Positions 9,538 to 43,628 of a stretch of 64,000 bases of DNA are shown here, piece by piece. How positions within the stretch are numbered: the first letter of the stretch is position 1; the number at the start of each line of letters is the position of its first letter. A program made the position numbers and the translations under genes. The stretch covers positions 64,001 to 128,000 of the forward strand of contig CAWKNZ010000002.1 in NCBI GenBank assembly GCA_963851265.1, given 5' to 3'. Under the pieces are notes generated by a model. It was not told the DNA's origin, made no database searches, and saw nothing but the letters and a program-made list of their open reading frames with translations. This DNA is from an uncultured Gemmatimonadales bacterium. GTDB taxonomy: Bacteria; Gemmatimonadota; Gemmatimonadetes; Gemmatimonadales; Gemmatimonadaceae.

Positions 9538-10503
9538 CTACTGCCGCGACCCCACCCCGGCGAGAGCGTCCGGTGTCGGCCGCGCATCCTCCACTTCGTC
9601 CTCCGACTCGATCTGCGGTGGCGGCGCTGGGAATCCCGCCAGCCACTCCCGCACGCACGCGAAGAACGCCGCGCGGTGCGCCACGCCCGAGAACAGGTGG
9701 TCCGCACGCGAAAACACGCGCGTGGTCACCGCACCGTGCGCCGCCCCGCCGTGCGGCACCGCGCGGCCGAGGACCTCCGCCGTCTGCCGCTCGCTGTTGA
9801 AGATGGAATCGAACGTCCCCGTGAACACGAACAGCAGCCGCGCCCCGCGCCCCAGCACCGCGGCCACGTCCGACCGGAAGCGCGCACGCGTCGGGTACTC
9901 GCGCTGAAACACCGGCTGGCCCGCGCTGGCGTCCCCGGCCGGAGCCGTGCGCGCGAATCGCCGCCGCAGCGAGCGCCACCGCGCGAACCGCTGCCAACGC
10001 TCCAGCTGCAGGTACCGCAGGGTCTGGCGGCGCACGTAGTAGCCGAACGTCGGATACGTGTAGCCGTCGACGAACACCGCGCCCACCACGCGCCGGTCCG
10101 CGACCGCTACCGGGTGCATGCTGTCGACCCCCGAACACAGCCCCACGAGTACCACCTCGCGTATGCCGAACTGTGCCTCCAGCCAGTCCAGCGCCTCACG
10201 CACGTCGGCCGTCGCCTGCTCACTACTCCCCTGCGCCCCGGCCCTGGGCAGACTGTCGCCCAACCCCGAGAGGTCGAAGCGCAGGGCGTACCACCCCATG
10301 GCCGCGGCGGCACGCGCCAGCTCCACGTACAGGCGGAATGGCCCGACGTGGTGGCTCAGTCCGATGTTCGCCATCACCACCGCCCGGCGCGGCGCCGCCA
10401 CGCCGGACACGCCCGCGTCCGCCGGGTGCGAGACCACGCCGACCAGCCCCCGGTGCGAGCCGAACACGACGGCGCGCTCGACCACCGCCGTCGCGTTAGA
10501 CAT
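9538..10503 (-). CDS. Alpha/beta-hydrolase-fold protein, exosortase-system hydrolase-1-like (Cys elbow)
   Basis: ERAVVFG, HHVGPFRLYVELAR, RFDLSGLGDS, elbow GLCSG, late ADHLF; overlaps the upstream gene's stop. Confidence 0.75.
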   Translation of the reverse strand: MSNATAVVERAVVFGSHRGLVGVVSHPADAGVSGVAAPRRAVVMANIGLSHHVGPFRLYVELARAAAAMGWYALRFDLSGLGDSLPRAGAQGSSEQATADVREALDWLEAQFGIREVVLVGLCSGVDSMHPVAVADRRVVGAVFVDGYTYPTFGYYVRRQTLRYLQLERWQRFARWRSLRRRFARTAPAGDASAGQPVFQREYPTRARFRSDVAAVLGRGARLLFVFTGTFDSIFNSERQTAEVLGRAVPHGGAAHGAVTTRVFSRADHLFSGVAHRAAFFACVREWLAGFPAPPPQIESEDEVEDARPTPDALAGVGSRQ

Positions 10504-11320
10504 GGACAGGTCCCTGCGGAACGCGCGTCGCGATGTAGTCGCCGATCGCGCCGGGAATGTGGCGCGCCATGAGCGTATCGCTCTCCCAGTGCCCGCCGCG
10601 TGCGAGCGTCGCGTCCGCGACGTGGCGCACCTCGCACCGCCCGCCGCGCGCACCGAGTGCCGCACCGAGCGCCGCGTACTCCGGGCCTTCGTCCGCGCCA
10701 ATCACGAGCACCCGACCGGGCGCACCGCACCCCTCGGCCATCAGGTCCACGGCGGCGATCTCCGCGCGCATCGCCGGCGTCATCAAAAAGCCGAGTAGTT
10801 CGTCCGCCGCGCGGCGATCGTCTTCGGGGTACCTGCGCTCGCCCAGCCCGGACGCCTGCTCCGCGTCGAGCCCTGCGAGGTACTCCACGCCCCGCGCGAC
10901 CGGGTCCCACAGCACGAGGTCCGAAACGGCGAGACCGGCCGCACACGCGCGTGCCGCGACCACGGCGCCGAGCCGTAGCCCGACGAGCGCCGGCCGCCGC
11001 ACCCCGGCCACGTCTTGCAACTCGCGCGCGGCCATGCGCGTGTCCTCCACCCACCGCGCGAGGCTCCCTTCGTCCGACTCGCCCGCCGAGTCACCCGTTC
11101 CCGCATAGTCGAAACGCAGTACGTGCACCCCGGCGGCCGCGAGTGCGGCCGCCAGGCGCCGGTACGCCCAGTGCGCCTGGCGGTATTCCTGCGGCCCCGG
11201 ATAGCAGAGCACCACGCCGCTCCGGCGCGGTGCTGTGACGCGGGCCGCGATCGCGACCGACGCCGGATGGTACACGCCGAACAGCTGGCGGCCGGTGTCG
11301 CCAAAGAATCGGGGAATCAT
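10496..11320 (-). CDS. Alpha/beta-hydrolase-fold protein, exosortase-system hydrolase-2-like (no nucleophile)
   Basis: LFGVYHP, RRLAAALA, RFDYAGTGDSAG, elbow GLRLG, LVLWDPV. Confidence 0.75.
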   Translation of the reverse strand: MIPRFFGDTGRQLFGVYHPASVAIAARVTAPRRSGVVLCYPGPQEYRQAHWAYRRLAAALAAAGVHVLRFDYAGTGDSAGESDEGSLARWVEDTRMAARELQDVAGVRRPALVGLRLGAVVAARACAAGLAVSDLVLWDPVARGVEYLAGLDAEQASGLGERRYPEDDRRAADELLGFLMTPAMRAEIAAVDLMAEGCGAPGRVLVIGADEGPEYAALGAALGARGGRCEVRHVADATLARGGHWESDTLMARHIPGAIGDYIATRVPQGPVHV

Positions 11321-11357
11321 CTGAAGCTCGGGACGTACCTGGACTGTCGCCCGGCTG

Positions 11358-14300
11358 CTACGGCCCGCCGACCTGCACGTACCGTCCGGGCTCGTTCGGG
11401 TGGGCGACGAACCATGCCGGCGAGCCGTCACGCGCGCGGCCGAGTCGCGCGCCGGGCACGGGCGGCGCGCCGACCGCCGCCGGCGCGGACTCCGCGGGCC
11501 GCGGCGGCAGGAATCCGCCCTCCTGCATCTCGGCCACGGCGCTCGTGAACGCGTCGACCACGAGGCGCAGGTCCTCGGTGCTGTGACTCGCGGTCATGAA
11601 GCAGGGGAACCCGTCGTACACGTGCACGCCGCGGTCGCGCAGCATGTAGAACAGCAGGTCGCCGTGCGGCTGCTCGGCCGTGTAGAACGTCTTCCACACC
11701 GACGCGAAGTGCCGGATCTCGAGCGGCGCGCCCGAGGCGCGGAACATCGCGTTGAGCTCGTCGGCGAGGTCGCGCGTGCGGTCGGCGAGCATGCGCTGCA
11801 ACGCCGGGCCGCGCGCCTTCAGCTCCAGGAGCACGGCCCGCGCGGCCGCGAGCGCGAGCGGGTGGCGCACGAACGTCCCAGCGAAGTACGTCACGCCCAC
11901 CTCGGGCACCGACGCGTCGCCGAACCGCCACGCGCCGCCGTCGAGCGCGTCCATGAACTCGCGCTTGCCCGCGATCACCCCGATCGGCAGCCCCCCGCCG
12001 ACGATTTTGCCGTAGGTCGCGAGGTCGCCGCGGATGCCGAAGTGCTCCTGCGCGCCGCCCGGCGCCGCGCGGAAGCCGGTCACGATTTCGTCCCACACGT
12101 AGACGATCCCCTGCTCCTGCGTGAGCGCGCGCAGTTCGCGCAGGAACTCCGCCGGCTGGAAGTCCGGGCGCCGGCTCTGCACCGGCTCGACGACGACCGC
12201 GGCCAGCTCGTGCGCCCGCTCGCGCAGCACGGCCATCGATTCGGGCGTGCCGTAGTCGAGCACGAGCACGTTGTCCGTCGCCGAGCGCAGGATGCCCGGC
12301 GCGGCCGGCACCGCGCGGTGCGTGCGCGTCCCGCGCACGATCACCTCGTCGTTGATGCCGTGGTACGACCCGCCGAAGATCGCGACCAGGTCGCGCCCGG
12401 TCACCGTGCGCGCGATGCGGATCGCGCCCAACACCGCCTCCGATCCGGTGTTGCAGAACGCCACCCGCTCGGCCCCGGTCACCTCGGCGAAAAGCTCCGC
12501 CACCTCGGCCGCGAGCGGGTGCTGCGGCCCGACCTCGAACCCGAGGTCCAGCTGCCGCTTGACCGCCTCGACCACGAACGGCGCCGACCAGCCGAACAGG
12601 TTGGAGCCGAACCCCGACAGCACGTCCACGTACTCGTTCCCGTCCACGTCCCACATCCGCGACCCCGCCGAGCGCCCGACGACGAGCGGGTAGACGAGCT
12701 CCTTCGTCGCGGGGCGGAAGCCGGTCACGGCGCGGGGGTCGGCCATCCGCGCGCGGTGGGCGTCGGCAAACTGCTTCGACCCGGCCGTGCGCGCCGTGTA
12801 GCGGCGCATGAACGCGTCGAACCGCGACCGCTGGCGCGCGTCGAGGTCCGCGCTCCCCTTCGGCGTGATGCGCGGGGCCGCGCCGAACGCCTTCTTCGCG
12901 TCGTAGAACTCGCGCTGCGGACCGGTGGTGACTAACGGTGCGTCGTCCGCCGCCGGCGTATCCGCCGCCACGGCCGACGCCGGAGCGACCACGTTCGGAG
13001 GAACAACGGTCGGGGCAGCCACGGTCGGGGCAGCTACCGCCGGGGGCGGCGCAACCGGCGCCGGCGCCGCGAGCGCGACGCCTTCGGCCGCGCGGGCAGA
13101 TCCCGAGAGCAGGGCGAGCTGCTGGGTCATCACCCGCAACTGCTGCTCGATCAGCTGCTGCACGGCGTGGCCGCCACCCATCTCGACCAGCATCGGAGCG
13201 GCGACGGTACCAGCCACGGTACCGCCCGCGGAACCGACCACCGTCGGCGGGACCGCGACGGCCGCGGCGCTGGGCACGACCGCCGCCAACTCCGGCGCCG
13301 CCGCCTCCACGTAGTCGGCCTGTTCGGGCGGCATTGCCGCGTCGAGGTGCGCCGCGAGGCGATCGACGGTCGTGTACTCCTCGATCATCTGACGGAACGT
13401 CACCCGCACGCCGAAGCGCTTCGCCACGGCGAGGGAGACCTGCGTGAGTACGAGCGAGTCGATCCCGAGCTCGACGAAGCTCTCGGCCGCGTCGCCCGCG
13501 CCGATCTCGACGCCCGACACGGTTTCGAAAAGCTCGCACACCTGGGAGACGAGGCGGGGAAGACGGGCGGTGTTCGACACGGCAGGGGGAAGCGCGACGC
13601 GCGCAGACGCGTCGAGAGGAGGGGTGACGGACGGAGCAGGCGGTGCAGCGGCCGCGGCACTCGCCCGGGAGGACGAACCCGCAGGGAGCGGTTCCGGGGG
13701 CAGCGGATCCACCCAGTAGCGTTGACGCTCGAAGGGGTAGCACGGCACCGGCACGCGCCGGCGCGCCTCGCCGCGCACCACGCCGTCCCAGTCGGGACGC
13801 ACGCCGCACGTCCACAGCCGACCGAGCGCGGACAGCACGGCCTCGCCCTCCACTGCCGGATCGCCAGCGTCGCCGAGCGAGGCGACGCACGCCTGTGTGG
13901 CGCGGTCGGTGACTTGCTGCCGCGCGAGCGTCGACAGCGTCGCGCGCGGCCCGACTTCAAGCAGCAGCGCCCCGGGCTCCGACCACACCGTCCGCACCGC
14001 GTCGGCAAAGCGCACCGTCTCGCGTAGGTGGCGCGCCCAGTACCGCGGGTCGCACGCCTGCTCCGGCGTGAGCCACGTTCCGGTCACCGACGAGACGATC
14101 GGCGTCGTCGGAGCCGCGAGCGCGACACCACGGACGATGTCGAGGAACGGCGCGACCGCCGGTTCCATCATCGGCGAGTGGAACGCGTGCGACGTATGCA
14201 AGGGGCGGCACGCCACGCCCTCCGCGTCGAGCTCCGCCTGCAGTCGCGCGACGGCCTCGGTCGGCCCGGCCACGACGCACAGCGCGGGGCCGTTCTCCGA

Positions 14301-17300
14301 CGCGATGGCCAGCTCCGCCCCGAGCCGCGGTGCGACGGCCGCCGCGCCCAGGCGCACCGACAGCATGCTTCCCGTCGGGAGCTGTTGCATCATGCGGCCG
14401 CGCTCTGCCACGAGCCGCATGCCATCTTCCGGAGAGAACACGCCGGCGATCGCGGCCGCGACGAACTCGCCCACGGAGTGCCCCACCATCGCCCAGGGCC
14501 GAACGCCCCACGACTGCCACAACTCGGCGAGTGCGTACCCGGTCGCGAAGAGAGCGGGTTGTGTGACGGACGTCTGCCGCAGAACGGCCGCGGTGTCGGG
14601 CCCGTCCGCGAACAGCAGCTCGCGCAGGTCGCGGCCGAGGACCGCCCGCGCGCCCTCTGCGCAGCGGTCGAACGCCGCGCGGTAGACCGGCTCGCCGGCG
14701 TACAGCGCCGCACCCATCCGCGGGTACTGCGCGCCCTGGCCGGGAAACGCGAATACGACGCTCGGCGCCCCCCCGCCCGAGCGGCGCGTGTGCACGCGCC
14801 GCTCGTCGCGCGCGGCGAACGCGTCCGCCGCGTCGGCAGGTGACGACGCGACCACGGCGCGCCGGTGCGCGAACGCGCGCCGCCCCACGCGCAGCGTGTG
14901 CGCCACGTCCGCGAGGCACGCGTCGGGGCGCGCGCGCAGATGCGCCACGAGATCGTCCGTCGCACGCTCCAGCGCCGCCTCCGAACGAGCGGAGAGCACG
15001 AGCAGCTGCGCGCCCCGCGAAGGACCGTCGCTCGGGGGCAGCGGCGCCTCCCCGAGCACGATGTGCGCATTCGTGCCGCCCACCCCGAACGAGCTCACGC
15101 CAGCCATCCGGGGCCGCGCGCCGCGCGCCCACGCACGCGGTTCGGCCTGCACCCGGAACGGACTCCGCTCGAGCGCGAGGTGCGGGTTGGGCGCGGTGTA
15201 GTGCACCGTGCCCGGCAGGCACTCGTGCGCGAGGGCGAGCGCGGTCTTGATCACGCCGGCGGCGCCCGCCGCGACGACCGTGTGCCCCACGTTGCCCTTC
15301 ACCGAGCCGAGCGCGCACGGGCCGGCATCGGCCGGCCGCCCACCGAACACCTGCGAGAGCGCCGCGAACTCGACCGGATCGCCTAACGGCGTCGCCGTGC
15401 CGTGCGCCTCCACGTACGAGATCTCGTGCGGCGAGACGCCCGCGTCCGCGTGCGCCATCGCGACCGCGGCCGCCTGCCCGTCGACGCTCGGCGCCGTGAA
15501 GCTGGCCTTCGCCGCGCCGTCGTTGTTCAGCCCCACGCCGCGGACCACGGCGTGGATCGTGTCGCCGTCGCGCACCGCGTCGCTCAGGCGCTTGAGCGCC
15601 AGCACGGCGGCGCCGTCGCTGAACACCGTGCCCGACGCCGCCGCGTCGAAGGGACGCGTCCGACCGTCCGGCGACAGCATCCCGCCCTCCTGATACAGGT
15701 GGCCGCTGTTGGTCGGCACCGTGAGGGACACGCCGCCCGCGAGGGCGAGGTCGCACTGCCCCGCGCGCAGGCTCATCACGGCCTGGCAGATCGTCACCAG
15801 CGACGTCGAGCACGCGGTGTGGATGCTCAGCGCCGGTCCCGTGAGGCCCAGCCGGTGCGCGGTGCGCGTCGCGACGTAATCCTTCTCGTTGAGCAGCATC
15901 GCGTTGAACGCGCCGAACTGCTCCACCACGTCGGGCCGTCGCGCGAGCACCGTGCTCGCGTACGAGTTGTTGTACACGCCGGCGAACACGCCCACCGGCC
16001 CGTCATGTCGTTCGGGGACGTAGCCGGCGTGCTCGAGCGCGTGCCACGCGAGTTCGAGAAACAGGCGCTGCTGCGGGTCCATGATCTGCGCCTCGCGCGG
16101 CGACAGTCCGAAGAACCCCGCGTCGAACTGGTCGACGTCGCGCAGGGTGCCGCGTGCGGCCACGTACTGCGGATCGGCGCGGAGCCGCGGGTCCACCGCG
16201 GCGTCGAGCTCCGCATCGCTGAAGCGCGAGATCGATTCGACGCCGTCGCGCAGGTTGCGCCAGAACGCGTCCACGTCCGCCGCACCCGGAAACCGAGCCG
16301 CCATCCCGATGATGGCGACGGGCTCGGGCGCGCCGTCCGCCCGGCCGTTCGTGCGGTCGATCCCGCGCGGCGCCACGACCTGCACCGGTGCGTCGCCCGC
16401 GATATGCCCGGCCATCGCGCGCGGCGTGCGATGTTGGAAGAAGTGCGCGATGGGAATGTCGAGGCCCAGCCGCGTCTGCAGCCGCGCGCGCGCGCGCACG
16501 ACGAGCAGCGAGCTCGCCCCGAGGTCGAACACGTTGTCGTCCGGCCCGACGCGAGGAACGCCCAACAGTTCGGCCCACACCTGCGAGATAGCGCCCGCCG
16601 CGTCCTGCTCGGCCGGGGCCACGTGCGCCGGCGTGCCGCCGACATCGGGCGCGGGCAGGGCGCGCACGTCCACCTTACCGTTAGGCGTGAGCGGGAGCAC
16701 GCTCAGCCAGACGAAGGCGCTCGGCACGAGGTACTCCGGCAGCGTCGCCCGGAGCGCCTCGCGGATGGCGCCGTCGGCCGGCCGGGCGGTCGCCTCGGCG
16801 ACCACGTAGGCGACGAGCCGCTTGGGAAGACCCTCCGCGACCGCCCGCGCCACGACCGCCGCGTCGCGCACCCCGGGCACGCGGCGGAGCGAAGTAGCGA
16901 CCTCTTTCGGTTCGATACGGTACCCGCTGATCTTCACCTGGTCGTCCGCCCGACCGACGAACTCCAGCGCGCCGTTCGGCAACGTGCGCACGAGGTCGCC
17001 CGTCCGGTACAGGCGGGCGCCGGCATCGTCCGACCACGCGTCGTGCACGAAGCACTCCGCCGTCAGGTCCGGCCGCCCGAGGTAGCCGAGCGCGACTCCG
17101 GCACCGCCGATGAACAGCTCGCCGGTTTCGCCTGCGGGAACGGAACGCCGCTCGGCGTCCAGCACCCGCAGCGTCGTCTGCCGGATGGCGTACCCGATCG
17201 GCACCGACGTCCACGACTCCGGCACCGGCGACGGAATCGCGTAACAGGCGGCAAACGTCGTCGTCTCGGTCGGCCCGTACCCGTTGATGAGCTGGGTCCC

Positions 17301-18194
17301 GTCGAGCACCTCCTGCGCGCGCCGCACGTGACGCACCGAAAGCGCCTCACCGCCCGTCAGCAGCTGACGAAGGCCGCGGAGCGCGGCGGGCGCCTCGTCG
17401 ACCACCGCGTTGAACAGCCCGGCCGTGAGCCACATCGTCGTCACGCCGTCCTCCGCGATCGCGCACGCGAGCCCTTCCGGGGTCGGCACGCGGTCGCGGT
17501 AGAGCGCGCACGTGCCGCCCGTGAGCAGCGGCCCGAAGATCTCGAACGTGGACGCATCGAACCCGAGCGGCGCGGCGTGTAGCACCGTGTGCGCCGGCCC
17601 GAGTTCGACGTAGTCGACGTCGCACACGAGGCGAACGATCGCCCGGTGCGGTACTTCGACGCCCTTGGGCTCACCCGTCGATCCCGAGGTGAACATCACG
17701 TACGCACGATCGTCCGGCCCCACCGCGGCCGCGGGCCGTTCGGCCGACCTCTCCTCAGGTGCCGCGTACGTCTCCGGCCCGTCGAGTCGTAGAACGGTCC
17801 ACGCCCCCGCCGGAACGCGCTCGGCGTGCGCAGCGTCGGTGATGACGACCGGCGACGCGGTCGCGCGCAGCAGGTGCGCGAGGCGCTCCGCGGGATACGA
17901 CTCCTCGAGCGGAACGTACGCCGCGCCGGCCTTCAGGATCGCGAGCAGCGCGGCCACCATCGCCGGCGTGCGGTCGAGGCACACGCCCACGGCCGCGCCG
18001 CGCCCGACGCCGCGGGCCTGCAGTGCGGCGGCGAGCTGGTTCGCGCGCGCGTCGATCTCGGCGTAGCTCGTGCTGGCACCCGCGTGGCGAACCGCGGCCG
18101 CGTGCGGCGTGCGGGCGACCTGCGCTTCGAACGCGGCGTGCACCGTCGCCGGGCGCGCCATCCCGGCCGGCGTCGTCGTGCGCCGCTCGCTCAC
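11358..18194 (-). CDS. Hybrid NRPS-PKS: A-T-KS-AT-ACP-aminotransferase III
   Basis: A: FTSGSTGEPKG, NGYGPTE, YRTGD, PNGK; T: FDLGASSL; KS: TACSTS, EAHGTAT, NVGH; AT: GHSVG, HAFH (malonyl type); ACP: LGIDSL; AMT: FCNTGSEA, WDEIVTGFR, TYGKIVGGG; no TE; GTG at 18194 overlaps the PPTase stop. Confidence 0.92.
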   Translation of the reverse strand: MSERRTTTPAGMARPATVHAAFEAQVARTPHAAAVRHAGASTSYAEIDARANQLAAALQARGVGRGAAVGVCLDRTPAMVAALLAILKAGAAYVPLEESYPAERLAHLLRATASPVVITDAAHAERVPAGAWTVLRLDGPETYAAPEERSAERPAAAVGPDDRAYVMFTSGSTGEPKGVEVPHRAIVRLVCDVDYVELGPAHTVLHAAPLGFDASTFEIFGPLLTGGTCALYRDRVPTPEGLACAIAEDGVTTMWLTAGLFNAVVDEAPAALRGLRQLLTGGEALSVRHVRRAQEVLDGTQLINGYGPTETTTFAACYAIPSPVPESWTSVPIGYAIRQTTLRVLDAERRSVPAGETGELFIGGAGVALGYLGRPDLTAECFVHDAWSDDAGARLYRTGDLVRTLPNGALEFVGRADDQVKISGYRIEPKEVATSLRRVPGVRDAAVVARAVAEGLPKRLVAYVVAEATARPADGAIREALRATLPEYLVPSAFVWLSVLPLTPNGKVDVRALPAPDVGGTPAHVAPAEQDAAGAISQVWAELLGVPRVGPDDNVFDLGASSLLVVRARARLQTRLGLDIPIAHFFQHRTPRAMAGHIAGDAPVQVVAPRGIDRTNGRADGAPEPVAIIGMAARFPGAADVDAFWRNLRDGVESISRFSDAELDAAVDPRLRADPQYVAARGTLRDVDQFDAGFFGLSPREAQIMDPQQRLFLELAWHALEHAGYVPERHDGPVGVFAGVYNNSYASTVLARRPDVVEQFGAFNAMLLNEKDYVATRTAHRLGLTGPALSIHTACSTSLVTICQAVMSLRAGQCDLALAGGVSLTVPTNSGHLYQEGGMLSPDGRTRPFDAAASGTVFSDGAAVLALKRLSDAVRDGDTIHAVVRGVGLNNDGAAKASFTAPSVDGQAAAVAMAHADAGVSPHEISYVEAHGTATPLGDPVEFAALSQVFGGRPADAGPCALGSVKGNVGHTVVAAGAAGVIKTALALAHECLPGTVHYTAPNPHLALERSPFRVQAEPRAWARGARPRMAGVSSFGVGGTNAHIVLGEAPLPPSDGPSRGAQLLVLSARSEAALERATDDLVAHLRARPDACLADVAHTLRVGRRAFAHRRAVVASSPADAADAFAARDERRVHTRRSGGGAPSVVFAFPGQGAQYPRMGAALYAGEPVYRAAFDRCAEGARAVLGRDLRELLFADGPDTAAVLRQTSVTQPALFATGYALAELWQSWGVRPWAMVGHSVGEFVAAAIAGVFSPEDGMRLVAERGRMMQQLPTGSMLSVRLGAAAVAPRLGAELAIASENGPALCVVAGPTEAVARLQAELDAEGVACRPLHTSHAFHSPMMEPAVAPFLDIVRGVALAAPTTPIVSSVTGTWLTPEQACDPRYWARHLRETVRFADAVRTVWSEPGALLLEVGPRATLSTLARQQVTDRATQACVASLGDAGDPAVEGEAVLSALGRLWTCGVRPDWDGVVRGEARRRVPVPCYPFERQRYWVDPLPPEPLPAGSSSRASAAAAAPPAPSVTPPLDASARVALPPAVSNTARLPRLVSQVCELFETVSGVEIGAGDAAESFVELGIDSLVLTQVSLAVAKRFGVRVTFRQMIEEYTTVDRLAAHLDAAMPPEQADYVEAAAPELAAVVPSAAAVAVPPTVVGSAGGTVAGTVAAPMLVEMGGGHAVQQLIEQQLRVMTQQLALLSGSARAAEGVALAAPAPVAPPPAVAAPTVAAPTVVPPNVVAPASAVAADTPAADDAPLVTTGPQREFYDAKKAFGAAPRITPKGSADLDARQRSRFDAFMRRYTARTAGSKQFADAHRARMADPRAVTGFRPATKELVYPLVVGRSAGSRMWDVDGNEYVDVLSGFGSNLFGWSAPFVVEAVKRQLDLGFEVGPQHPLAAEVAELFAEVTGAERVAFCNTGSEAVLGAIRIARTVTGRDLVAIFGGSYHGINDEVIVRGTRTHRAVPAAPGILRSATDNVLVLDYGTPESMAVLRERAHELAAVVVEPVQSRRPDFQPAEFLRELRALTQEQGIVYVWDEIVTGFRAAPGGAQEHFGIRGDLATYGKIVGGGLPIGVIAGKREFMDALDGGAWRFGDASVPEVGVTYFAGTFVRHPLALAAARAVLLELKARGPALQRMLADRTRDLADELNAMFRASGAPLEIRHFASVWKTFYTAEQPHGDLLFYMLRDRGVHVYDGFPCFMTASHSTEDLRLVVDAFTSAVAEMQEGGFLPPRPAESAPAAVGAPPVPGARLGRARDGSPAWFVAHPNEPGRYVQVGGP

Positions 18195-19030: not shown

Positions 19031-19104
19031 TGCGTGCTCATGCGTAGGTGGTGCAACTCGTCGTTCTGCGAGAGATTGGCGCACTTCGCCCATTTCTCGG
19101 ATCT

Positions 19105-32366: not shown

Positions 32367-32537
32367 TCACCCGAGGTGGGGGAGCACGAAGAGGACGGCG
32401 ACGAGGTACGCCGCGTACGACGCGGCGACCCACGAGACCGCACGCCGGAGCGCGCGCGCCGGCGACGGGTGGCGTGCTGCGCGCATCGGGAGTACGACGG
32501 TGGCGACGAGCACCGAGATGAGCAGCAGCTTCCCCAC
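32367..32537 (-). CDS. 56-aa two-TM membrane protein (not in ORF track)
   Basis: Manual translation MGKLLLISVLVATVVLPMRAARHPSPARALRRAVSWVAASYAAYLVAVLFVLPHLG; GTG 5 nt after the OPX stop. Confidence 0.7.
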   Translation of the reverse strand: MGKLLLISVLVATVVLPMRAARHPSPARALRRAVSWVAASYAAYLVAVLFVLPHLG

Positions 32538-32542
32538 GGGCG

Positions 32543-33199: not shown

Positions 33200-33212
33200 G
33201 GGGCGGGTGTTG

Positions 33213-34427: not shown

Positions 34428-34428
34428 G

Positions 34429-36279
34429 TCAACGACCCTCGGCAGCGCCGGCGCTCGCGCGGGGCGCGGACGGCAGCGGCGGGCGGCCGGAGCCGGCGTC
34501 CTGGCGGACCGCCGCCTGGGGGCGCGTCGCCGTACCGCCGGAGGGCGTGTGCCCGCGCACGCCGGGCAGGATGCGCTCCAGCGCGGTCGGGTACTTGCCG
34601 CCGAACGTCAGGATCGTCGCCGCGAGGATCCGGAAGTCCACCGCGGCCGAGGCGTGGCGCACGTAGAGCAGGTCGTAGTGGATCCACTGGTGGAAGTCGC
34701 CGGTGCTGCGGTCCCGGCGGCACACCTGCCACAGTCCGGTGATGCCGGGGCGCACGGACAGGCGTCCGTGGCGCCACGGGATGCAGATCTGGTTCTCGCG
34801 GAACGGCGACGGGCGCGGGCCGACGAAGCTCATCTCGCCGCGCACGACGTTCCAGAGCTGTGGCAGCTCGTCGACGTTGAGCCGGCGCAACCAGGAGCCG
34901 ACGCGCGTCACGCGCGGGTCGCGGTCCATCTTGAACTGCGGGCCGTCCAGCTGCTGCGCGGCGGCGAGCGCCTTCTGCAGGGCGTCGGCGTCGGGCCGCA
35001 TGCTGCGGAACTTCCAGCAGCGGAACGCGACGCCGTCACGCCCTTCGCGCCGGTCGCCGTAGAAGATCGGGAAGCCCGAGTCGAGCGCGACGAGCACCGC
35101 GCACACGAGCATGACCGGCGAGAGGAGTACGAGGGCGGCGAGCGCCAGCACGGGTTCGACGGCCGTCTTGACCCGCGGGTAGGATGACGCGCGCGCCGGT
35201 GCGGACGGCGCCGGCGTGCCGCCGCGCGTCTCGCGCCGCTGTCCCTGCCCGCTCGGCACGAAGCCGCGCCCCGACTCGTCGCTGGCGACCACGCGGTGGC
35301 GCACCGTGGCGCCGCTCGCGACGCGGGCGCCGTCGGTGAGCAGGCACTGGGCGATGGTGGCGCCGCTCTCGACGTGCGCCCCGCGCGCGAGCAGCGCCGG
35401 GCCGACGACGAGCGCGCCTGCCTCGACGTGCACGTCGGCGGCGACCACCACCGGCCCGACGAAGCGCGCCGACGGATCGATGTGAACGCCACCGCCGACG
35501 ACGAGCGGGCCTTCGGTGACGCCGGCGACGTCGGACGTGCCGTCGCGACGCGGGGCGCCGCGACGCTCACCCCGCGCGTCGTCGACGAGCTGCACGATCC
35601 GTCGTTCGGCGAGTGCGAGCGCGCCGGCTTCGTCGCTCAGGTCGACGAGGCGGCCGTGGTAGGTCACGTCCTGGCTCGGCACGCCCTGCGCGGCGAGCGA
35701 CGCGCGCACCGCGGTGAGCGACGTCCACTCGGCGTCGCCGGCGACGAGCACGCAGGAGACCGGGACGCACGATGCGACGATGCCCGCGGGGAACGGCCAG
35801 GTGACGGGCTCGAAGTAGCGCTGCACGCGCCGGAGGCGGCCGTCGACGCCGGGCTGCACGAATTCCTTCGCGCCTAACGGAGCGGTTTCGAAGGCGAGCA
35901 GGTGCCGCAGCATGCGCGAGTCGCGCACGCGCGCCTCGACGAGCGGTCGCAGGTCGATGCCGTCGAGCGGGTAGCAGTCGGCCGCGACGATGAGCAGCGT
36001 GTCGGACGGGTCGAAGCGCGACAGCGGGTCGCGGAAGACCTCCGCGCCGACGACCGCGGCCAGTTGGGGCGCGGTGCGGCGCACCGCGGCGAGGTACCGC
36101 GGGCCCGCGTCGAAGCGCGGGAGCAGCAGCGGGGCGTGCTGCGTCACGTCGGACACGCGTTCCATGACTTCCTCAAGCACGGTGCCCGTGCCCGTCGGAA
36201 GCAGGAGGAGTGACGAGGCGCGATCGCCTTCGCCCACGTAGGGGAGACGCGCGTCGAGCAGGAGCGGGATGATGCGCAC
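34429..36279 (-). CDS. Priming sugar-phosphate transferase fused to nucleotidyltransferase-like and LbH domains
   Basis: C-terminal [51 protein letters not shown]; hexapeptide repeats in the middle. Confidence 0.85.
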
Positions 36280-36293
36280 GGTCGGGCTGGTCC

Positions 36294-37439
36294 TCAGCCG
36301 GTGACGCGGCCGGGCACGAGCGGCCCCGGAAAGAGCGTGAAGTCGCGCGGGGCGCGCACCTGATCGCGGTCGTGCGTGGCGTGCTCGGGCGTCGTGAGGG
36401 CGTCGGTGGGCTGCACCGTCGCATCGACCACCTCGACGACGCTCATGAGGCGTTCGCCGGGCGCGATGACGACCGCGTGCGCGAGGAGCGACGCGTCAAC
36501 GAGAGCGCCCGCCCCGACGCAGCACCGCTCCCAGACGGTCGAGCGCGCCACGACGGCGCCGGCCTCGACGGTCGAGCGCGCGCCGATGCTGACCGGGCCG
36601 ACGATGACGGCGTCGGGCCCGACGGACGCGCCCGGTCCGATGATCACGGGGCCGATGAGGCGTGCGCTCGGATCGACCGTGGCCGTCGGGTGGCGGAGTC
36701 CGTCACCGACCGGCACGTAATCGCGGAAGTCGACGCGTTGCGCCGCGGTGGCGATGAGCCAGCCGCTGACCGCGGCGTAGCTGGCGTAATCGAGGACGCG
36801 CGGCGAGAGGCCGCGCATCTCGTGGACGTGCACGCGCTCGCCGGCGGCGTAGAGGCGTTCGAGGAGCCCCTGCTTGATGTCCTGGAAGCCGAGCGCCGGG
36901 ACGCTCTCGAGCACGTGACGCTCGAACACGTAGATGCCGCCCGGCGCGCCGCGGCGGGGCGCACCCACGGCCGCTCGCCGCCGGTCGACTTCGACCACCG
37001 TCGTCGCGGCCGCGCCGGTGCGCCAGTGGGTGGCGAGGAGCGCGGCGAGATCGATCGACGGAATCATCGCACCCTCGACCAACACGTACGTGCTCGCGGG
37101 CGTCAGTTCGGCGGCGTCGCGCGCGCAGCCGGCGGGCCCACGCGGCTGGGTGTCGACGTGGTACGAGAGTGCCATCCCGAGTGCGGCGCCGTGGCCGAGT
37201 GCTTGCTCGACCATCGGGGTCGAGCTGTTGGCGCAGATGGTCGCCGCGGAAACGCCGCCGTCGCGCAACCAGGCGAGCGGGTACGTGATGAGGGGGCGTT
37301 GCGCGACGGGGAGCAGTGGGCCGCGCAGCAGGCGTTCGAACGCGCCCTCACCCCAGTAGTAGGACCCGGCGAGCACGACGCCGTGGACCGATCGCGCCTC
37401 GAACGGCGCATCGGATGCGGGGTGGTGGTCGGTGGTCAC
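36294..37439 (-). CDS. NDP-sugar pyrophosphorylase-like protein with LbH domain (degenerate motif)
   Basis: GVVLAGS, PLLPVAQRPLI, PRGPAGC, GIYVF, LbH C-terminus; lacks GGxGTRL. Confidence 0.75.
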   Translation of the reverse strand: MTTDHHPASDAPFEARSVHGVVLAGSYYWGEGAFERLLRGPLLPVAQRPLITYPLAWLRDGGVSAATICANSSTPMVEQALGHGAALGMALSYHVDTQPRGPAGCARDAAELTPASTYVLVEGAMIPSIDLAALLATHWRTGAAATTVVEVDRRRAAVGAPRRGAPGGIYVFERHVLESVPALGFQDIKQGLLERLYAAGERVHVHEMRGLSPRVLDYASYAAVSGWLIATAAQRVDFRDYVPVGDGLRHPTATVDPSARLIGPVIIGPGASVGPDAVIVGPVSIGARSTVEAGAVVARSTVWERCCVGAGALVDASLLAHAVVIAPGERLMSVVEVVDATVQPTDALTTPEHATHDRDQVRAPRDFTLFPGPLVPGRVTG

Positions 37440-37863: not shown

Positions 37864-39576
37864 TCAGATGTGCACGGCCTCCGCACTGGCGCGCCGCGGA
37901 CGAACCGTGACCGCGGCGGCGGCGACCACGCTGAGCGGCGGGGCGGAGCGCATGAGCACCGCATTCGCCGAGACCTTCGTTCCGCGCCCGACCGTGATGG
38001 GCCCGAGGAGCGCGGCGCCTGGCCCCACGTGGACGTCGGCTTCGAGTGCGGGGGCGCCGATGCCGTGTCCGTCGGGGTGCATGCTTTCGCCGAGGGTGAC
38101 GTGTTGGAACAGGATGCAGCCCGGTCCGACGCGCGCGCCGTGACCGATGACGAGGCCGGTGCCGTGGACGAGCACGACGCCGGGCGCGAGGTCCGCATCC
38201 CAATGCAGCTCAGCGCCGTAGACGTGGCGGATGAGTCGCGAGGCGATCTTGGCGGGTAGCATCAGGCCGAGTGCCCGCAGCAGGCGCATGGCGCGGTAGG
38301 CGGCCATCATCTGCAGGCCGATGCGCTGGACGAGGTCGGAGAGGAGACCGGTCGACCTGACCTCGCTCGCCGCGCCGTCGTGCGAGACGGACCGGTACTT
38401 GACGTCGGTTCGGTGCAGCGCTTCGTGATCGGCGCACGTGTCGGCGACGCACTTGAGCACGCGGCCGAGTGGCGGGAGCGCGTCGTCGCGCACCGCGTTG
38501 AGGTACCGGCGCAGTCCGCTGCAGGCTGCGCGTCGGCTGCCCGCGCCGGCGCGCACGCCGGCGAAGTACTGCAGGCCGTAGGCGAGGGTCACCGCCGCGA
38601 GCGCGAGGCGCTCGGCGCCGAGAGTGGCGAGCGCGGTCGCGACGCCGGCGATCGCCCAGGCGAGCGGGCGGGCGACTGCCGGCGCCAGCGCCGCGAGGAG
38701 CATCAGCGGGCGCGAGACCGGGTTGACGGCGAAGAGGAACCGCCACGGGTTGGTGTCGGGGCGTCCGCCGTGCTTGGTCGAGACGCGCAGGTCGGCGGCA
38801 CCGTAGGCCGCCGAGCGCCGCATCCACTTCGCGAGGCTCGTGTGGTCGGACGCGTGCCAGCCCACGGCGGCGTCGCTCAGCACGATCTCGGCGCCGGCGC
38901 GGTCGAGCCGCATCCCGAGCTCCGCGTCTTCCGACAGACGGAGCGAACGGTCGAAGCCGCCGACCGCTTCATACGCCGCTCGACGCATCGACACGTTGCC
39001 GGTGTAGACGTTGCTCCCCACCGGACGTTGCACGCCCCGCGCGACGTCCGCCGCGAGCCGATCGAGCGTGGCGAGGTGGAAGCGCTCGAACAGCGGGAGT
39101 GGCGTGTCGGGCTCGGGGCGCAGGCGTCCGAGCACCACGCGGCCGGGTCCGGGCGTGGGGAAGTCGTCGTGCGCGGCGCCGTGCGCCTCGGCGTGCGCTT
39201 CGAGGAAGTCGCGTCCGATGCGAACGTCGTCGTCGACGATCACGAGGAGCGTGCCGCGGGCGAGGGTGGCGGCGTGGTGCCGCGCGGCGCCCGGACCGGC
39301 GTTAGGCTGCGCCACGACGCGCAGGCGGTACGGTACGCCGTCCGGCGCGAGGAGCGGCGCGAGCGCGTCGCGTACCGGGGGAGTCGATCCGTCGTCGACG
39401 ACGATCACCTCGAAGCGGTCGGGCGCGAGCGTCTGTTCGGCGAGCTGGGCGAGCAGCCGCGCGACCGAGCGGGGCCGGTTGTACGTGGCGACGATCACGC
39501 TCACGAGGTACGCGTCGGTCGCGACCGCCGGCTCGGCCGGCTCGGCGAGCCGCACGGGCTGCAGCACGGCGCTCAT
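37864..39576 (-). CDS. GT2 glycosyltransferase fused to serine-acetyltransferase-like LbH domain
   Basis: SVIVATYNR, VVDDGS, IVDDD, GGFD, SEDAELG; C-terminal GAELH, VHGTGLVIG, QHVTLG, GPITVG. Confidence 0.85.
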   Translation of the reverse strand: MSAVLQPVRLAEPAEPAVATDAYLVSVIVATYNRPRSVARLLAQLAEQTLAPDRFEVIVVDDGSTPPVRDALAPLLAPDGVPYRLRVVAQPNAGPGAARHHAATLARGTLLVIVDDDVRIGRDFLEAHAEAHGAAHDDFPTPGPGRVVLGRLRPEPDTPLPLFERFHLATLDRLAADVARGVQRPVGSNVYTGNVSMRRAAYEAVGGFDRSLRLSEDAELGMRLDRAGAEIVLSDAAVGWHASDHTSLAKWMRRSAAYGAADLRVSTKHGGRPDTNPWRFLFAVNPVSRPLMLLAALAPAVARPLAWAIAGVATALATLGAERLALAAVTLAYGLQYFAGVRAGAGSRRAACSGLRRYLNAVRDDALPPLGRVLKCVADTCADHEALHRTDVKYRSVSHDGAASEVRSTGLLSDLVQRIGLQMMAAYRAMRLLRALGLMLPAKIASRLIRHVYGAELHWDADLAPGVVLVHGTGLVIGHGARVGPGCILFQHVTLGESMHPDGHGIGAPALEADVHVGPGAALLGPITVGRGTKVSANAVLMRSAPPLSVVAAAAVTVRPRRASAEAVHI

Positions 39577-40310
39577 GCGACGCTCCGCACGCGCGGGGCC
39601 GAGGTCACAACGTGCACGAGGTCGCGCACGCAGCGTGCTCGTGCGACGTCGGAGGGGTGCAACTCGACGCCGAACGCCTCTTCGAGGGCCAGCAGCACGT
39701 GCGCGCTTCCGTCGGCGTCCCAGCCGCGGACGGCTGCACACGCGGCGTCGAGGTGCGGCGGGGCGACGAGCCCGAAGGCGCGGGCGACGATCGTCGGTAC
39801 TACGACCGCGGCATCGGGGTCGAGTGGGCGTGCGGGCACGCCGCCGATCCGCGCGCCGTCCGGAACGGTGCCGCGCACCACGCTGCCCGGCGCCACGCGC
39901 ACGCCGGCGCCGATCACGGCGCCGCGCAGGACCGTCACGTTAGCGCCGATGGTGGCGCCGTCGCCGATGACGATCGGGGTACATTCAGGGCGCGCGTGGA
40001 AGTCGTCGGCGACGTGGAAATCGGTGTCGAGAATCATCGAGAACGGGCCGACGACGACGTCGTGGCCGATGCGCACGTGTGCGTGGGCGGTGATGCCGAC
40101 GCCGTGGTCTATGGTGACGCGGTCGCCGATCTCGAGCGAGGCCCCCGGGCCGGTGACGAGGTGGGTCGGGACGGGCGTCGCATTGAGCACGAAGGCGTGC
40201 CCGATGGTGATGCGTCCGAGGTTCTCGACCGCGGGGCGGCCGCGGACGCGCGCGCCGCGACCGACGCGCTCACAGGTCGCGAACAGCGACGACGGCAGGT
40301 GTGCGCTCAT
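39573..40310 (-). CDS. LbH acyltransferase with C-terminal ACP-like domain
   Basis: ILDTDFH, PIVIGDG, GGVPAR; tail GWDADG..LLALEEAFGVEL. Confidence 0.75.
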   Translation of the reverse strand: MSAHLPSSLFATCERVGRGARVRGRPAVENLGRITIGHAFVLNATPVPTHLVTGPGASLEIGDRVTIDHGVGITAHAHVRIGHDVVVGPFSMILDTDFHVADDFHARPECTPIVIGDGATIGANVTVLRGAVIGAGVRVAPGSVVRGTVPDGARIGGVPARPLDPDAAVVVPTIVARAFGLVAPPHLDAACAAVRGWDADGSAHVLLALEEAFGVELHPSDVARARCVRDLVHVVTSAPRVRSVA

Positions 40311-42070
40311 CGGACGATTTCGAGGATCGGGGATTCATCGACGGTGTCGGTCGGTTCGGTCTCGGCGGCCGCGTCGGGCGCGTCGAAGCAGTGCAGCGCG
40401 GCGAGGGCCTGCGGATAGCGGAGCCGGTCGGCCGGCCAGTCGGGGACGAGCACGTCGGGAAGCGCGTCGCGGACGCGCGCGCGTTCGGCCGGATCGGCAT
40501 CGACGAACACGACGTGCTGGAGCGCGATGCCGAGCTCGGAGGCGAGGTCGGCGACGTGTCGCACCTTGTCGCCGCCCATGCGTCGCGCGGCGAAGTCGGT
40601 GTCCCGCAGCAGGACGTCGGGCTGTTGGCGGAGCATGTCGAACACGACGGATTCGGCGTCGCTGCTCGCGAGGGCGAGCACGACGCCGCGGCGTGCGAGC
40701 CGGCGGACGGCTCGTTGGAAGTCGGCGAGCGCGGCGCGCTCGGTCGCGTGCGCGCCCGCGTGTTGGGCATCGCGCGCGGCATCAGGGCGGCCGTGATTCC
40801 ACCAGGTGTGGTCGAGGCCGAGCACGAGCAGGGTGCGCGCGTGTCCGAGGGCGCCGCGCACGGTAGCCTTGATGTCGCATGCCGCCGCCGCGACGGCGTT
40901 GGGAGGCAAGGCGACGGCGCCGAGGTACCACGCGCGGGCGGCGCGGTCGTCGATCCCGGCGGCGGCCCGCCAGCGGGTCGCGTCGAGAACGAACACGTTC
41001 GGCATCTCCGCCGCGCGTTCCATGAGTCGAGCGTTCATGCGGGTGGTCATCCACGCGTTGCCGCCCGGTCGCGCGTCGCGCATACCGAGGCCGCGGTCGC
41101 CGGCGGCGAGGGACCAGGTGGGGGCGATGACGACGCGGAAGCGTGTGGCGCCGGCCTCGATCGCGTCGCAGAAGGCGTCGACGTCGGCGAGGATCTCCTC
41201 GTCGGTGACCGGGGCGCCGTCGAGGGCACGGGCGAACGCCGGCGACACCTGGTCGGGGCGCGTCCAGACGACGGCGAAATCGGCGTGTTGCGCGTCTGGG
41301 AGGGCAGGCAAGAGCGGCGCCCGCAGGTCGAGGGGCGCGGCGACGGCGACCATCGCCGGGGCGTCGGTCGAATCGGCGAGACGCGCGACGAGCTCGCGCG
41401 TCGCGAAGTCCGAGACCACGACGCCGCGCGGCGTGGAGCCCGCGGGCGCGTCGGCGCGCGAGTGCCTAGCGGCCGGCGGCGCTCCGCCCGGCGCGCGTAT
41501 CGGGCGGAGCACGCGGGCCGGCACGCCGCCGGCGAGCACGCCGGGCGGTATCTCGCCCTCGACGACGCTGCCCGCGGCGATCGTGGAGCCGGCGCCAATG
41601 CGCGCGCCGGGGCGAAGCGTGACCCGGCCGGCGAGCCACACGCCGTCGCCGACGACGATCGGCTCGGCGGCGTCGTCGGGGCGCTCGGCGTCGCTCACGA
41701 CGCAGTAGGGCCCGATGTTCACGCCGTCACCGATGGTCACCGAGGACGTGGCGACGAGGAGTGAGCCGAAGTTGAGGAGGAGTTTGTTGCCGATGCGCAG
41801 GGTGGCGCCCGGGCCGGCGGCGAGTTCGCAGGGGGCCGGGCCCGCGTTGATCACGAGATCGTCGCCGATGGTGATCGATCCCTCGTTGCGGACCACCGGA
41901 CGCCCCAACACGCGCGGGCGGGCGCCGACGCGGTCACACGCGCGCAGGCGGTGCGGGGCGAGAGCGGAGGCGGCGATGTAGCGCCGGCCCTTCGCGATGC
42001 GTGCCCCGACGGGGAGGTCGCGGTCGCGGGCGAGGCTGCGCGCGATCTTCTGGAGGAGGGGGGGCTTCAT
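40307..42070 (-). CDS. LbH acyltransferase fused to a truncated, degenerate FkbH-like domain
   Basis: N-terminal LbH (GGVPAR); FkbH-like LVLGLDHTWW, RGVVLALAS, VFVDADPAER..VRDALPDV. Confidence 0.75.
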   Translation of the reverse strand: MKPPLLQKIARSLARDRDLPVGARIAKGRRYIAASALAPHRLRACDRVGARPRVLGRPVVRNEGSITIGDDLVINAGPAPCELAAGPGATLRIGNKLLLNFGSLLVATSSVTIGDGVNIGPYCVVSDAERPDDAAEPIVVGDGVWLAGRVTLRPGARIGAGSTIAAGSVVEGEIPPGVLAGGVPARVLRPIRAPGGAPPAARHSRADAPAGSTPRGVVVSDFATRELVARLADSTDAPAMVAVAAPLDLRAPLLPALPDAQHADFAVVWTRPDQVSPAFARALDGAPVTDEEILADVDAFCDAIEAGATRFRVVIAPTWSLAAGDRGLGMRDARPGGNAWMTTRMNARLMERAAEMPNVFVLDATRWRAAAGIDDRAARAWYLGAVALPPNAVAAAACDIKATVRGALGHARTLLVLGLDHTWWNHGRPDAARDAQHAGAHATERAALADFQRAVRRLARRGVVLALASSDAESVVFDMLRQQPDVLLRDTDFAARRMGGDKVRHVADLASELGIALQHVVFVDADPAERARVRDALPDVLVPDWPADRLRYPQALAALHCFDAPDAAAETEPTDTVDESPILEIVR

Positions 42071-42095
42071 GCGGCGGGTGGCTGGGGGCGGTGCG

Positions 42096-43628
42096 TCAGG
42101 CGGTGGCGACGCCGGCGCGCCGGCCGGCGCCGAGCGCGCCCTGAGCGAAGCCCCGGAGCTCGCGCGGGTTCACGGCGCCCGTGGCGACGACGCCTGCGGC
42201 GTAGACGATGGCGTCGGCAGCTAGGCGCCAGACGCCCGTTGGCGCGAGGAAGTGGTCGGCGACGAGGACGGCGGCGCAGACGCCCGCGGTCTTGGCGAGG
42301 ACGACGGCGAGGCGGCGGTCGACGCCGCGGCGGCCGATGAGCCAGGCCATCATGCCGGCGGCGTAGAGTTCTGTGAGGACGAGCGCGGCGCCCGCGCCGA
42401 CGCCGGCGCCGCCCGGGCCTAACGCGCGCAAGCCGTGCGGCACGAGCCACAGGTTGAGCAGCGGCGAGAGCAGCATGCCGGACATCGACACCCAGCTCAC
42501 GGCCCAGCCGCGCTCGAGGCGGACGAGGACGCTCGCGCTCACCATGGCCGCGTACGTGAGCACGAACGTCGGCGCGAGCAAGCGGAGGCTCATCGCCGCG
42601 GGGGCGAAGGCGCGGCCGAACGCCAGCGCGACGATGGGGTCTGCGGCGACGTAGAGGCCGAGCGACGCCGGGATCGCGAGCGAGAGGATCATCTCCATCG
42701 ACCGGCGCGTGACCAGCATGAGCTCGTCCTCGGAGCGGGCGGCCGCGCGCGAGGTGAGTGGGAGGAGGACCCAGCCGATGAGCGGCGACAGCAGCAGCGA
42801 CATGCCGGCGAGCGTGCCCGCCGCGCCGTACCATCCGACCTCGGTGTCGTTGGTGAGGAACGACATGATGCTGACGTCGACCTTGCAGTAGATCGTCTGC
42901 GCGACGCTGGCCGTGAAGAACGGCAGGCTGGCGCGGATGACGGCGAGCGAGGCGGCGGTGTCGATGCGGAAGCGGAGGCCGACGTGGCGCCGGGAGAGGA
43001 TGGCGAGGGCGGCGGCCTTGAGCGCCTCGGAGGCGAGCATGGCGACGGCGACGCCGATCACGCCCTGGCCGAACGCGAGCGCGACGGCGATGCCGATGCC
43101 CCACACGACCTTTGACGCGACGTTCCAGACGGAGAGGCCGTCGACTTGGCCGACCGCCTGCAGCATCGCCGCGTAAATCGCGTTGAGGTTGAAAATGACT
43201 TGGGCGACGCCGAGCACGACGACGAGGCGGAGCACGTCGTGCGGCTTGCCGGCGACGCCGAGCGCGGCGACGCCCGCGACGAGCACGATGGCGCTGAGCG
43301 CGAGTCGGAGGACGAAGGTGCCCCCGAAGAAGTCGTTCGCGTGCTCGCTGCGGGTGGCGAGTTCCTTCCGGACGTAGGTGTCGAGCCCGAGGCTCGCGGC
43401 GATGAAGATCGTCGACGTGAACGCGTCGGCGAACTGAAAGCCGCCGAAGGCCGCGGGGCCGAGGTGGCGCGGGAGGGCGATGCGGACGAGCAGGCCGACG
43501 GCCCAGGTGCCGACGAGCGATCCGCCGAGTTTGGCCGCGTCGCGCATGGCTCGCCACACGTCGCCGCGCAACTCGCCGCGGTCACGGGGGATCGCGGGCG
43601 CGGCGGCCAGGGTCGGGCCGTAGATCAT
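42096..43628 (-). CDS. wzx: Wzx flippase
   Basis: About 12-14 TMs, LPRHLGP..FG, IYCKVDVSIM, VGWYGAA. Confidence 0.85.
   Translation of the reverse strand: MIYGPTLAAAPAIPRDRGELRGDVWRAMRDAAKLGGSLVGTWAVGLLVRIALPRHLGPAAFGGFQFADAFTSTIFIAASLGLDTYVRKELATRSEHANDFFGGTFVLRLALSAIVLVAGVAALGVAGKPHDVLRLVVVLGVAQVIFNLNAIYAAMLQAVGQVDGLSVWNVASKVVWGIGIAVALAFGQGVIGVAVAMLASEALKAAALAILSRRHVGLRFRIDTAASLAVIRASLPFFTASVAQTIYCKVDVSIMSFLTNDTEVGWYGAAGTLAGMSLLLSPLIGWVLLPLTSRAAARSEDELMLVTRRSMEMILSLAIPASLGLYVAADPIVALAFGRAFAPAAMSLRLLAPTFVLTYAAMVSASVLVRLERGWAVSWVSMSGMLLSPLLNLWLVPHGLRALGPGGAGVGAGAALVLTELYAAGMMAWLIGRRGVDRRLAVVLAKTAGVCAAVLVADHFLAPTGVWRLAADAIVYAAGVVATGAVNPRELRGFAQGALGAGRRAGVATA

Follow-up and report, generated by a model that had tools for sequence, protein, structure and literature searches.

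In a 64,000-nucleotide stretch of DNA from an uncultured Gemmatimonadales bacterium of soil type, a Wzx/Wzy exopolysaccharide locus is followed by a nonribosomal peptide synthetase (NRPS), a hybrid NRPS/polyketide synthase (PKS) that ends in an aminotransferase domain, and two genes of the alpha/beta-hydrolase fold, here called h1 and h2. The arrangement recurs in several phyla, and its likely role is to decorate the polysaccharide with a small, nitrogen-rich acyl group. The stretch (the window; G000:C2:64001-128000, about 74% GC) was analysed through 41 open reading frames (ORFs) from a codon-model gene caller, of which 30 were scanned against Pfam and 11 judged by eye. A preliminary description of this DNA had seen an assembly line without a thioesterase inside a polysaccharide locus and had proposed that its product is transferred to the repeat unit or its lipid carrier rather than released. 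The observation is real and is partly confirmed, with corrections given below; the interpretation is partly supported, glycan transfer itself still being inferred.

What carries this reading is a rule that links the last domain of the NRPS to the pair and to glycan genes. The hybrid was searched for in one genome per species (at least 599 stretches), and the best 80 loci were taken further; they span Gemmatimonadota, Xanthomonadales, Betaproteobacteria, Bacteroidota, Planctomycetota, Bdellovibrionota and Deltaproteobacteria and include cultured Pseudoxanthomonas and Rhodanobacter type strains. Whole-genome tallies cover 50 genomes of these loci, mostly the longer ones. In the 25 genomes with a carrier domain at the end of the NRPS, h1 is always present, within 35 kb in 24, and a priming transferase lies within 35 kb in 20 (0.55 expected). 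Where it ends in a thioesterase (22 genomes), h1 is present in none, and a priming transferase accompanies eight (1.14 expected); the three genomes without an adjoining NRPS include one with a priming transferase. Overall, a priming transferase lies within 35 kb of the hybrid in 29/50 genomes versus about 1.8 expected, kin not being independent. The co-occurrence of synthase and glycan genes across phyla, which had been proposed as a check, is thereby largely borne out for the thioesterase-less form. Read by hand, 15 of the 25 carrier-ended cases have a gene for an outer-membrane polysaccharide export (OPX) protein within 45 kb, and seven of the other ten loci are near contig ends; Pfam-based distance to OPX is of no use in Bacteroidota, where the loci have TolC-like genes instead.

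One of the carrier-ended lines contains an internal thioesterase and one has a separate thioesterase gene. The thioesterases in L018, L019 and L051 proved real, so the rule concerns the terminal domain rather than any thioesterase, and it holds within Pseudoxanthomonas (L051). In a further phylum, that of genome G876, four carrier-ended lines have the pair and three thioesterase-ended lines show no pair in the DNA fetched. The pair of Rhodanobacter (L099) directly follows genes for OPX, polysaccharide co-polymerase (PCP), kinase and barrel, about 22 kb from the aminotransferase domain. The same kind of line is hosted by three types of export system (Myxococcus-like, XrtA-like and the TolC/PCP type of Bacteroidota), and G073 and G1068 independently pair Myxococcus-like glycan genes with the hybrid. 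The starter pockets vary as well, Pro-like in 33 and Val-like in 20 of 64 domains, a set that includes the window and same-genus copies and counts one genome twice. Such varied export types and starter pockets are as expected of a variable surface decoration.

Both members of the pair, whose central importance the preliminary description had missed, lie on the minus strand. By sequence, h1 (9538..10503; TIGR03100, 65.2 bits, cut-off 168.45) and h2 (10496..11320; TIGR03101, 72.4 bits, cut-off 202.75) are distant relatives of exosortase-A-associated hydrolases 1 and 2, families catalogued as hypothetical, and they are paralogues of one another (hhalign 99%). The predicted acyltransferase subunit, h1, has a modelled hydrolase fold (predicted local distance difference test score, pLDDT, 81.7) with a Cys nucleophile elbow, G-x-C123-S-G; Cys123, Asp146 and Asp268-His269 are invariant in 25 sequences. 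Its best structural matches are esterases, with the thioesterase DcsB at a similar Z score. In the pseudo-hydrolase h2, Arg116 occupies the elbow; an Arg stands at this nucleophile position in 21/21 sequences, and in 146/150 of a larger set. The predicted complex of h1 and h2 scored 0.85 and the best of three controls 0.00; 116/157 solved complexes and 2/215 mismatched pairs attain that mark. At least 83% of contacts were shared between runs, with partner pLDDT of at least 77. This prediction supports binding of h1 to h2. Among solved structures, no similar complex and no close relative of h1 or h2 was found, the matches of both proteins being generic esterase folds. The gene for h2 is fused to the C terminus of the NRPS, in the thioesterase position, in 5/80 loci; h2-h1 fusions are common and A-T-h2 fusions (adenylation, thiolation, h2) occur. 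We predict that h2 is both the partner of h1 and the dock for the carrier domain. Neither protein has a strong hydrophobic segment, which points to an acceptor that is probably cytoplasmic. The h2 family comprises 4641 clusters at 50% identity (E<=1e-30), and a metagenome scan with h1 returned one locus. In L013 (17909-19590), h1 is split across two frames, by a frameshift or an assembly error.

The assembly line of the window matches the domain orders first described, as judged with Pfam: condensation-adenylation-thiolation twice (C-A-T-C-A-T) in the NRPS (26516-20037), and A-T, ketosynthase (KS), acyltransferase (AT), acyl carrier protein (ACP) and aminotransferase (AMT) in the hybrid (18194-11358). 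Neither megasynthase has a Pfam thioesterase or reductase match, as had been noted, and a genome-wide check for a thioesterase acting in trans gave one marginal PF00975 match over the cut-off, on another contig. They are the sole C-domain and type I KS genes found in this genome. The hybrid (11358..18194, minus strand; alternative start 18218) has intact KS, AT and AMT catalytic motifs, and its AT motif is, we assume, of the malonyl type. Its A domain scores above the TIGR01733 cut-off and has a Val-predicting pocket, whose code matches an entry given as Val in the part of PMC9113097 consulted. With 7066 of 8000 scored candidates at E<=1e-50, this is a large family, and the closest named homologue carries the label Gemmatirosa sp.

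In the NRPS gene (20037..26516, minus strand), module 1 is intact. In module 2, C2 has Gly where the second His should be, and the A3 and A10 motifs are missing from A2; both losses extend throughout this genus and were confirmed against LgrA. By its motifs, module 2 is thus not a working elongation module, and elongation by the NRPS, as the preliminary description had it, is confined in this genus to a single module. C2 is nonetheless conserved to the same degree as C1 (74-83% identity in three same-genus relatives) and T2 retains its Ser, which suggests a hand-over role for the module. At the same position, other genomes have a full module or a C-T unit without an A domain. The ratio dN/dS lies between 0.05 and 0.46 over all assembly-line domains and the h1/h2 pair, indicating purifying selection, and the same arrangement is found in 3/4 same-genus genomes, a tally that takes in the unpublished genome G011. 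Among the first A domains of the NRPSs, 43/76 have a code that we take to be of the Gly type; the pocket in the window is unusual.

From top to bottom, the locus comprises the Wzx/Wzy genes (43628 to 26540), the NRPS, a plus-strand Ser hydrolase, a phosphopantetheinyl transferase (PPTase), the hybrid, h2 and h1. The GTG start of the NRPS (26516), preceded by an AAGGA element, indeed lies 23 nt past the stop of the WecG/TagA-family gene (26540), and four-base start/stop overlaps link PCP, Wzy, the family 2 glycosyltransferase (GT2), a small P-loop gene and WecG, as well as PPTase and hybrid. PPTase, hybrid and the two hydrolase genes do follow the NRPS, but not as the unbroken run first described: the plus-strand gene (19105..20040), absent from that description and convergent with the NRPS, interrupts it by about 1.07 kb. 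A scan of the window for promoters and terminators gave nothing exceeding shuffled sequences. The EntD-type PPTase (18191..18961, minus strand; start uncertain, the longest ORF reaching 19093) is 44% identical to that of a synthase-free locus in genome G737. The plus-strand gene encodes a Ser-type alpha/beta-hydrolase (Pfam) with a hydrophobic N terminus. Homologues adjoin related synthases in L091 (partial), L094, L153, L183, L191 and L198, and L097 has none; on this comparison it is a recurring yet dispensable accessory. It was set aside as the release enzyme because of its absence from L097.

The pair also occurs apart from the hybrid. TIGR03100 scores above its cut-off in 14/151 genomes of one class, and in all nine such loci fetched, a small carrier-like ORF (D-S motif, by eye) precedes h2; seven of the nine have clear glycan genes. 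Profile matches to h1 were found in 12/401 and 18/251 genomes of two phyla. Of 34 h1 loci fetched regardless of a hybrid, three come from G067 and G073, outside the even samples, and several are cut by contig ends; in 19, the pair stands immediately behind a carrier-ended ORF. Fused pairs sit in clusters of amino acid:carrier protein ligases (NF005479 above cut-off in 3/3 tested). Such fused h2-h1 genes are seen in L158, L161 and L177, as well as L159, L162 and L186, where ligase and carrier are clustered with DUF1839, GH2-like and acyl-CoA dehydrogenase-like genes; this offers a clue to what these ligases may do. A different orphan line, with formyltransferase and luciferase-like monooxygenase domains, ends in h2/h1 beside glycosyltransferases in L149, L164, L167, L168 and L174.

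The polysaccharide locus, in turn, can do without the synthase. In the phylum of this bacterium, the co-polymerase orthologue occurs in 2/251 genomes and the aminotransferase domain in 5/251. G737 (L189) has the same locus with a PPTase, an intact FkbH protein and a Ser-bearing carrier in the same place, and no match to the synthase or to h1. In the window, the corresponding module (39573-42070) is decayed: the acyltransferase with a left-handed beta-helix (LbH) and a carrier domain (39573..40310, minus strand) has lost its carrier Ser, and the protein with LbH and FkbH-like domains (40307..42070, minus strand; TIGR01686 53 bits here vs 275 in L092) is without its catalytic Asp motif and C-terminal part (dN/dS about 0.53). 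This second carrier-based module, probably for glyceryl transfer, is intact in G737, L092 and L095, and two same-genus genomes retain both of its genes. Its decay here, next to a conserved synthase, suggests a possible exchange of one carrier-based decoration for another.

We favour, with slightly more than even confidence, a reading in which the synthase is an optional cassette of the polysaccharide locus that makes a Val-derived 3,4-diamino acyl unit joined to one amino acid, which h2/h1, predicted to work as a single enzyme, would move onto the repeat unit or a nucleotide sugar. The hybrid is predicted to load Val, extend it with malonate and transaminate it, giving an ACP-bound 3,4-diamino-5-methylhexanoyl unit. 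C1 would condense this unit onto the amino acid on T1 (from a Gly-type pocket in most homologues, an unusual one here), and the chain would pass to T2 via the His-less C2. There, h2 would dock the carrier domain, and h1 would pick up the chain on Cys123. Still in the cytoplasm and ahead of flipping by Wzx, h1 would then transfer the chain to a nucleotide sugar or an undecaprenyl-linked repeat unit, at either a hydroxyl or an amine.

Several observations weigh against this proposal. The polysaccharide locus also occurs without the synthase, and the window contains no deacetylase or sugar aminotransferase to make an acceptor amine. By established chemistry, cyclisation could detach a free 4-amino-3-oxo thioester from the assembly line. 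No priming transferase lies within 35 kb in 14/22 thioesterase-ended and 5/25 carrier-ended genomes, and three Variovorax genomes and Piscinibacter have line and pair without one nearby. In the phylum of G876, the hybrid occurs in 9/201 genomes and an EpsV-like gene in 7/201, with one genome in common; only 3/9 hybrid loci are in clear polymer clusters. Apart from that phylum, the fetched flanks of G092, G094 and G096 show no polymer cluster. Kinship inflates all tallies, and the 22 thioesterase-ended genomes are Bacteroidota with one exception. At least one glycan label is found in only 17/34 h1 loci, versus 29/224 windows of the own genome, a control that is a single genome and uses labels partly derived from this window; L165, L169-L171, L173 and L181-L183 have no glycan label. 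In L181 and L182, h2/h1 and a type II thioesterase lie amid an NRPS/PKS cluster with PKS genes downstream, where the pair may join two chains. Going by the context tallies, the pair nearly always accompanies carrier proteins, and its link to glycans is frequent but not constant.

But could the pair simply be a release enzyme, freeing a diamino acid dipeptide or lactam with a matrix or signal role that is co-regulated with the polysaccharide genes? Thioesterase-ended homologues exist, mostly away from priming transferases (the 14/22 above), as do pair-ended lines without glycan neighbours, and the structural matches of h1, esterases and the thioesterase DcsB, would suit such a role. No exporter for a free molecule is present in the window, however: besides Wzx and the OPX/barrel genes, no transporter was seen among the 41 called ORFs, in agreement with the preliminary description. 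Moreover, the pair follows glycan export genes when away from the synthase (L099, L155), and most of the loci with a stand-alone carrier and the pair, a set too small to build a complex metabolite, are glycan loci. We regard release as rather improbable.

Even less probable, in our view, is a different envelope acceptor, such as a lipid, the glycan of a PEP-CTERM protein or a second product, or use of the acyl-peptide as a bifunctional linker for anchoring or cross-linking the polymer. The predicted unit would carry two amines and a carboxyl, many hosts have XrtA-type loci, and L181/L182 hint at non-sugar acceptors; both an exosortase and a PEP-CTERM gene (51170-51991) are present in this genome. 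That exosortase is about 400 kb away, however, and the strongest neighbour signal comes from priming transferase, OPX and Wzx. Very unlikely is a synthase that is a decaying or recently inserted passenger unrelated to the polysaccharide. Module 2 and the FkbH/carrier module are degenerate, G737 has the locus without the synthase, and 6/7 EpsV-like genomes of the G876 phylum lack a hybrid match; against this stand the purifying selection on assembly line and pair, the arrangement shared by same-genus genomes and the recurrence of the linkage in other phyla. For the synthase as an optional cassette of its polysaccharide locus, we put the balance just on the favourable side.

The glycan genes listed in the preliminary description were recovered with Pfam and NCBIfam; those up to the flippase are all on the minus strand. 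Next to the NRPS is the EpsA-like glycosyltransferase of the WecG/TagA/CpsF family (26540..27457; PF03808; NF041872 284 bits, cut-off 500), followed by a small P-loop-like protein (27454..27933), by fold similarity a possible EcpK-type pseudokinase; it lacks the Walker A Lys, its hhalign probability is 1.7%, and no bacterial tyrosine kinase (BY-kinase) is among the matches listed. There follow an EpsU-like GT2 (27930..29192; NF041865 436 bits, cut-off 700), the Wzy polymerase (29189..30766; PF04932, NF041870), an EpsV-like PCP without a kinase domain (30763..32331; NF041864 288 bits, cut-off 800), a hydrophobic ORF of 56 residues between PCP and OPX (32367..32537; kept in L092, L095 and L104 by tblastn) and a short, EpsY-like OPX (32543..33166; PF02563, NF041843). 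The EpsX-like outer-membrane beta-barrel (33213..34427) has no Pfam or NCBIfam match, and a feature search placed it at 0.98 to a PF28089 (EpsX) cluster. The priming phosphoglycosyl transferase (34429..36279; PF02397), with N-terminal NTP-transferase-like and LbH parts, adjoins a second NTP-transferase-like and LbH protein (36294..37439; PF00483, weak); this neighbouring pair with degenerate NTP-transferase parts, one fused to the priming transferase, is kept in G737. Upstream are an EpsD-like GT2 fused to a CysE/EpsC-like acetyltransferase (37864..39576; NF041875 354 bits, cut-off 370; NF041874), the FkbH/carrier module and the Wzx flippase (42096..43628; PF01943, NF041871).

Beyond the range of the earlier description are an EpsB-like GH44 glycoside hydrolase (47443..49152, minus strand), which travels with this locus type, and a TIGR04325 methyltransferase (49253..50053, plus strand; 207 bits, cut-off 80), a recurring accessory of the hybrid with homologues in 18 other fetched loci. 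Directly upstream of Wzx (43877-47112) are a secreted-looking protein with ricin-lectin and DUF1996 domains, the latter present in L096 too, and an Fn3-GH18 protein. The PEP-CTERM protein lies further on, its exosortase being on the same contig (G000:C2:530762), and 54710-58469 encodes a CHAT-domain protein and then an unannotated protein of 457 residues with a hydrolase-like motif. The genome has a second polysaccharide locus (G000:C10, about 64000-72000) with a priming transferase, an OPX and a WecG-like gene. In other genomes, extra thioesterase-ended NRPS genes of Pseudoxanthomonas and Mucilaginibacter loci (L101:10589-14482, L117:4980-8732 and L114:6158-8818) stand beside Wzx or between glycosyltransferases.

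Finally, we would like to place the locus in the context of known systems. In mycosubtilin MycA and microcystin McyE, KS-AT-ACP-AMT hands over to a C domain, and the products are released lipopeptides. The hybrid shares this order and its catalytic residues, with a separate gene encoding the C domain (the two are fused in L044 and G1028), but it has an amino acid rather than a fatty-acyl or polyketide starter, and its line has one working NRPS module, no thioesterase and a glycan context. The glycan genes are reminiscent of the Myxococcus xanthus exopolysaccharide pathway of EpsZ, Wzx, Wzy, EpsV, EcpK, EpsY and EpsX, as set out in the sections of PMC12004946 consulted. The best NCBIfam matches of nine window genes are myxobacterial Eps models, and both systems have Wzx, Wzy, a priming transferase, a short OPX, a barrel and a kinase-less PCP; all Eps-model scores in the window are below cut-off, however, and a term search of the listed M. 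xanthus papers found no mention of an assembly line. With the TIGR03100/TIGR03101 pair, h1 and h2 share the gene order carrier-h2-h1, the Cys and Arg elbows and the polysaccharide context. They differ in scoring far below the cut-offs, in taking their substrate from a multimodular NRPS/PKS, where the named families have a stand-alone ligase and carrier, and in lying outside an exosortase A locus. Term searches found no mention of these families in the PEP-CTERM paper PMC1569441, nor of these genes in PMC3283707 on Variovorax swarming mutants.

Acyl decoration of glycans is known in principle. In Dlt D-alanylation and the mycobacterial Pks13/PapA systems, an activated acyl group is transferred to glycan or sugars. 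Transfer of an acyl group to glycan has also been proposed for Caulobacter HfsK/HfsH, in the part of PMC5362036 consulted. The enzymes of these systems are of the GNAT, MBOAT, thioesterase or PapA kind; a Cys/Arg hydrolase-fold pair is not known from any of them, nor is a hybrid line that contains an aminotransferase, and no Dlt-type MBOAT acyltransferase was matched among the locus proteins in Pfam or NCBIfam. A link to the sheath thiopeptidoglycan of Leptothrix and Sphaerotilus was considered and is not supported, and PMC13390465 and PMC9867689 turned out to have no bearing on the system. Full-text searches, with most subscription journals and supplements outside their scope, found no paper on the cluster or the pair, and the literature search found no study of the hybrid or h2 families. 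The most novel part is the undescribed terminal enzyme.

We tentatively propose, at somewhat less than even confidence, that the Cys/Arg heterodimer serves generally, in place of a thioesterase, as a terminal acyltransferase of thiotemplated biosynthesis of a kind not described so far. In many phyla it would link surface glycans to NRPS/PKS lines, to stand-alone ligase/carrier sets and to amino acid:carrier protein ligases, and here it would place a vicinal-diamino acyl-peptide on an exopolysaccharide. If true, this would represent a so far unreported class of peptide-polyketide-decorated glycans and explain a large family of orphan gene clusters without a free metabolite; a product that ends up on a polysaccharide would be overlooked by metabolite screens. 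It would also make a new chain-transfer chemistry available to NRPS/PKS engineering. For the bacteria themselves, a cationic peptide decoration could alter the adhesion of the biofilm matrix, its flocculation or its recognition by phages.

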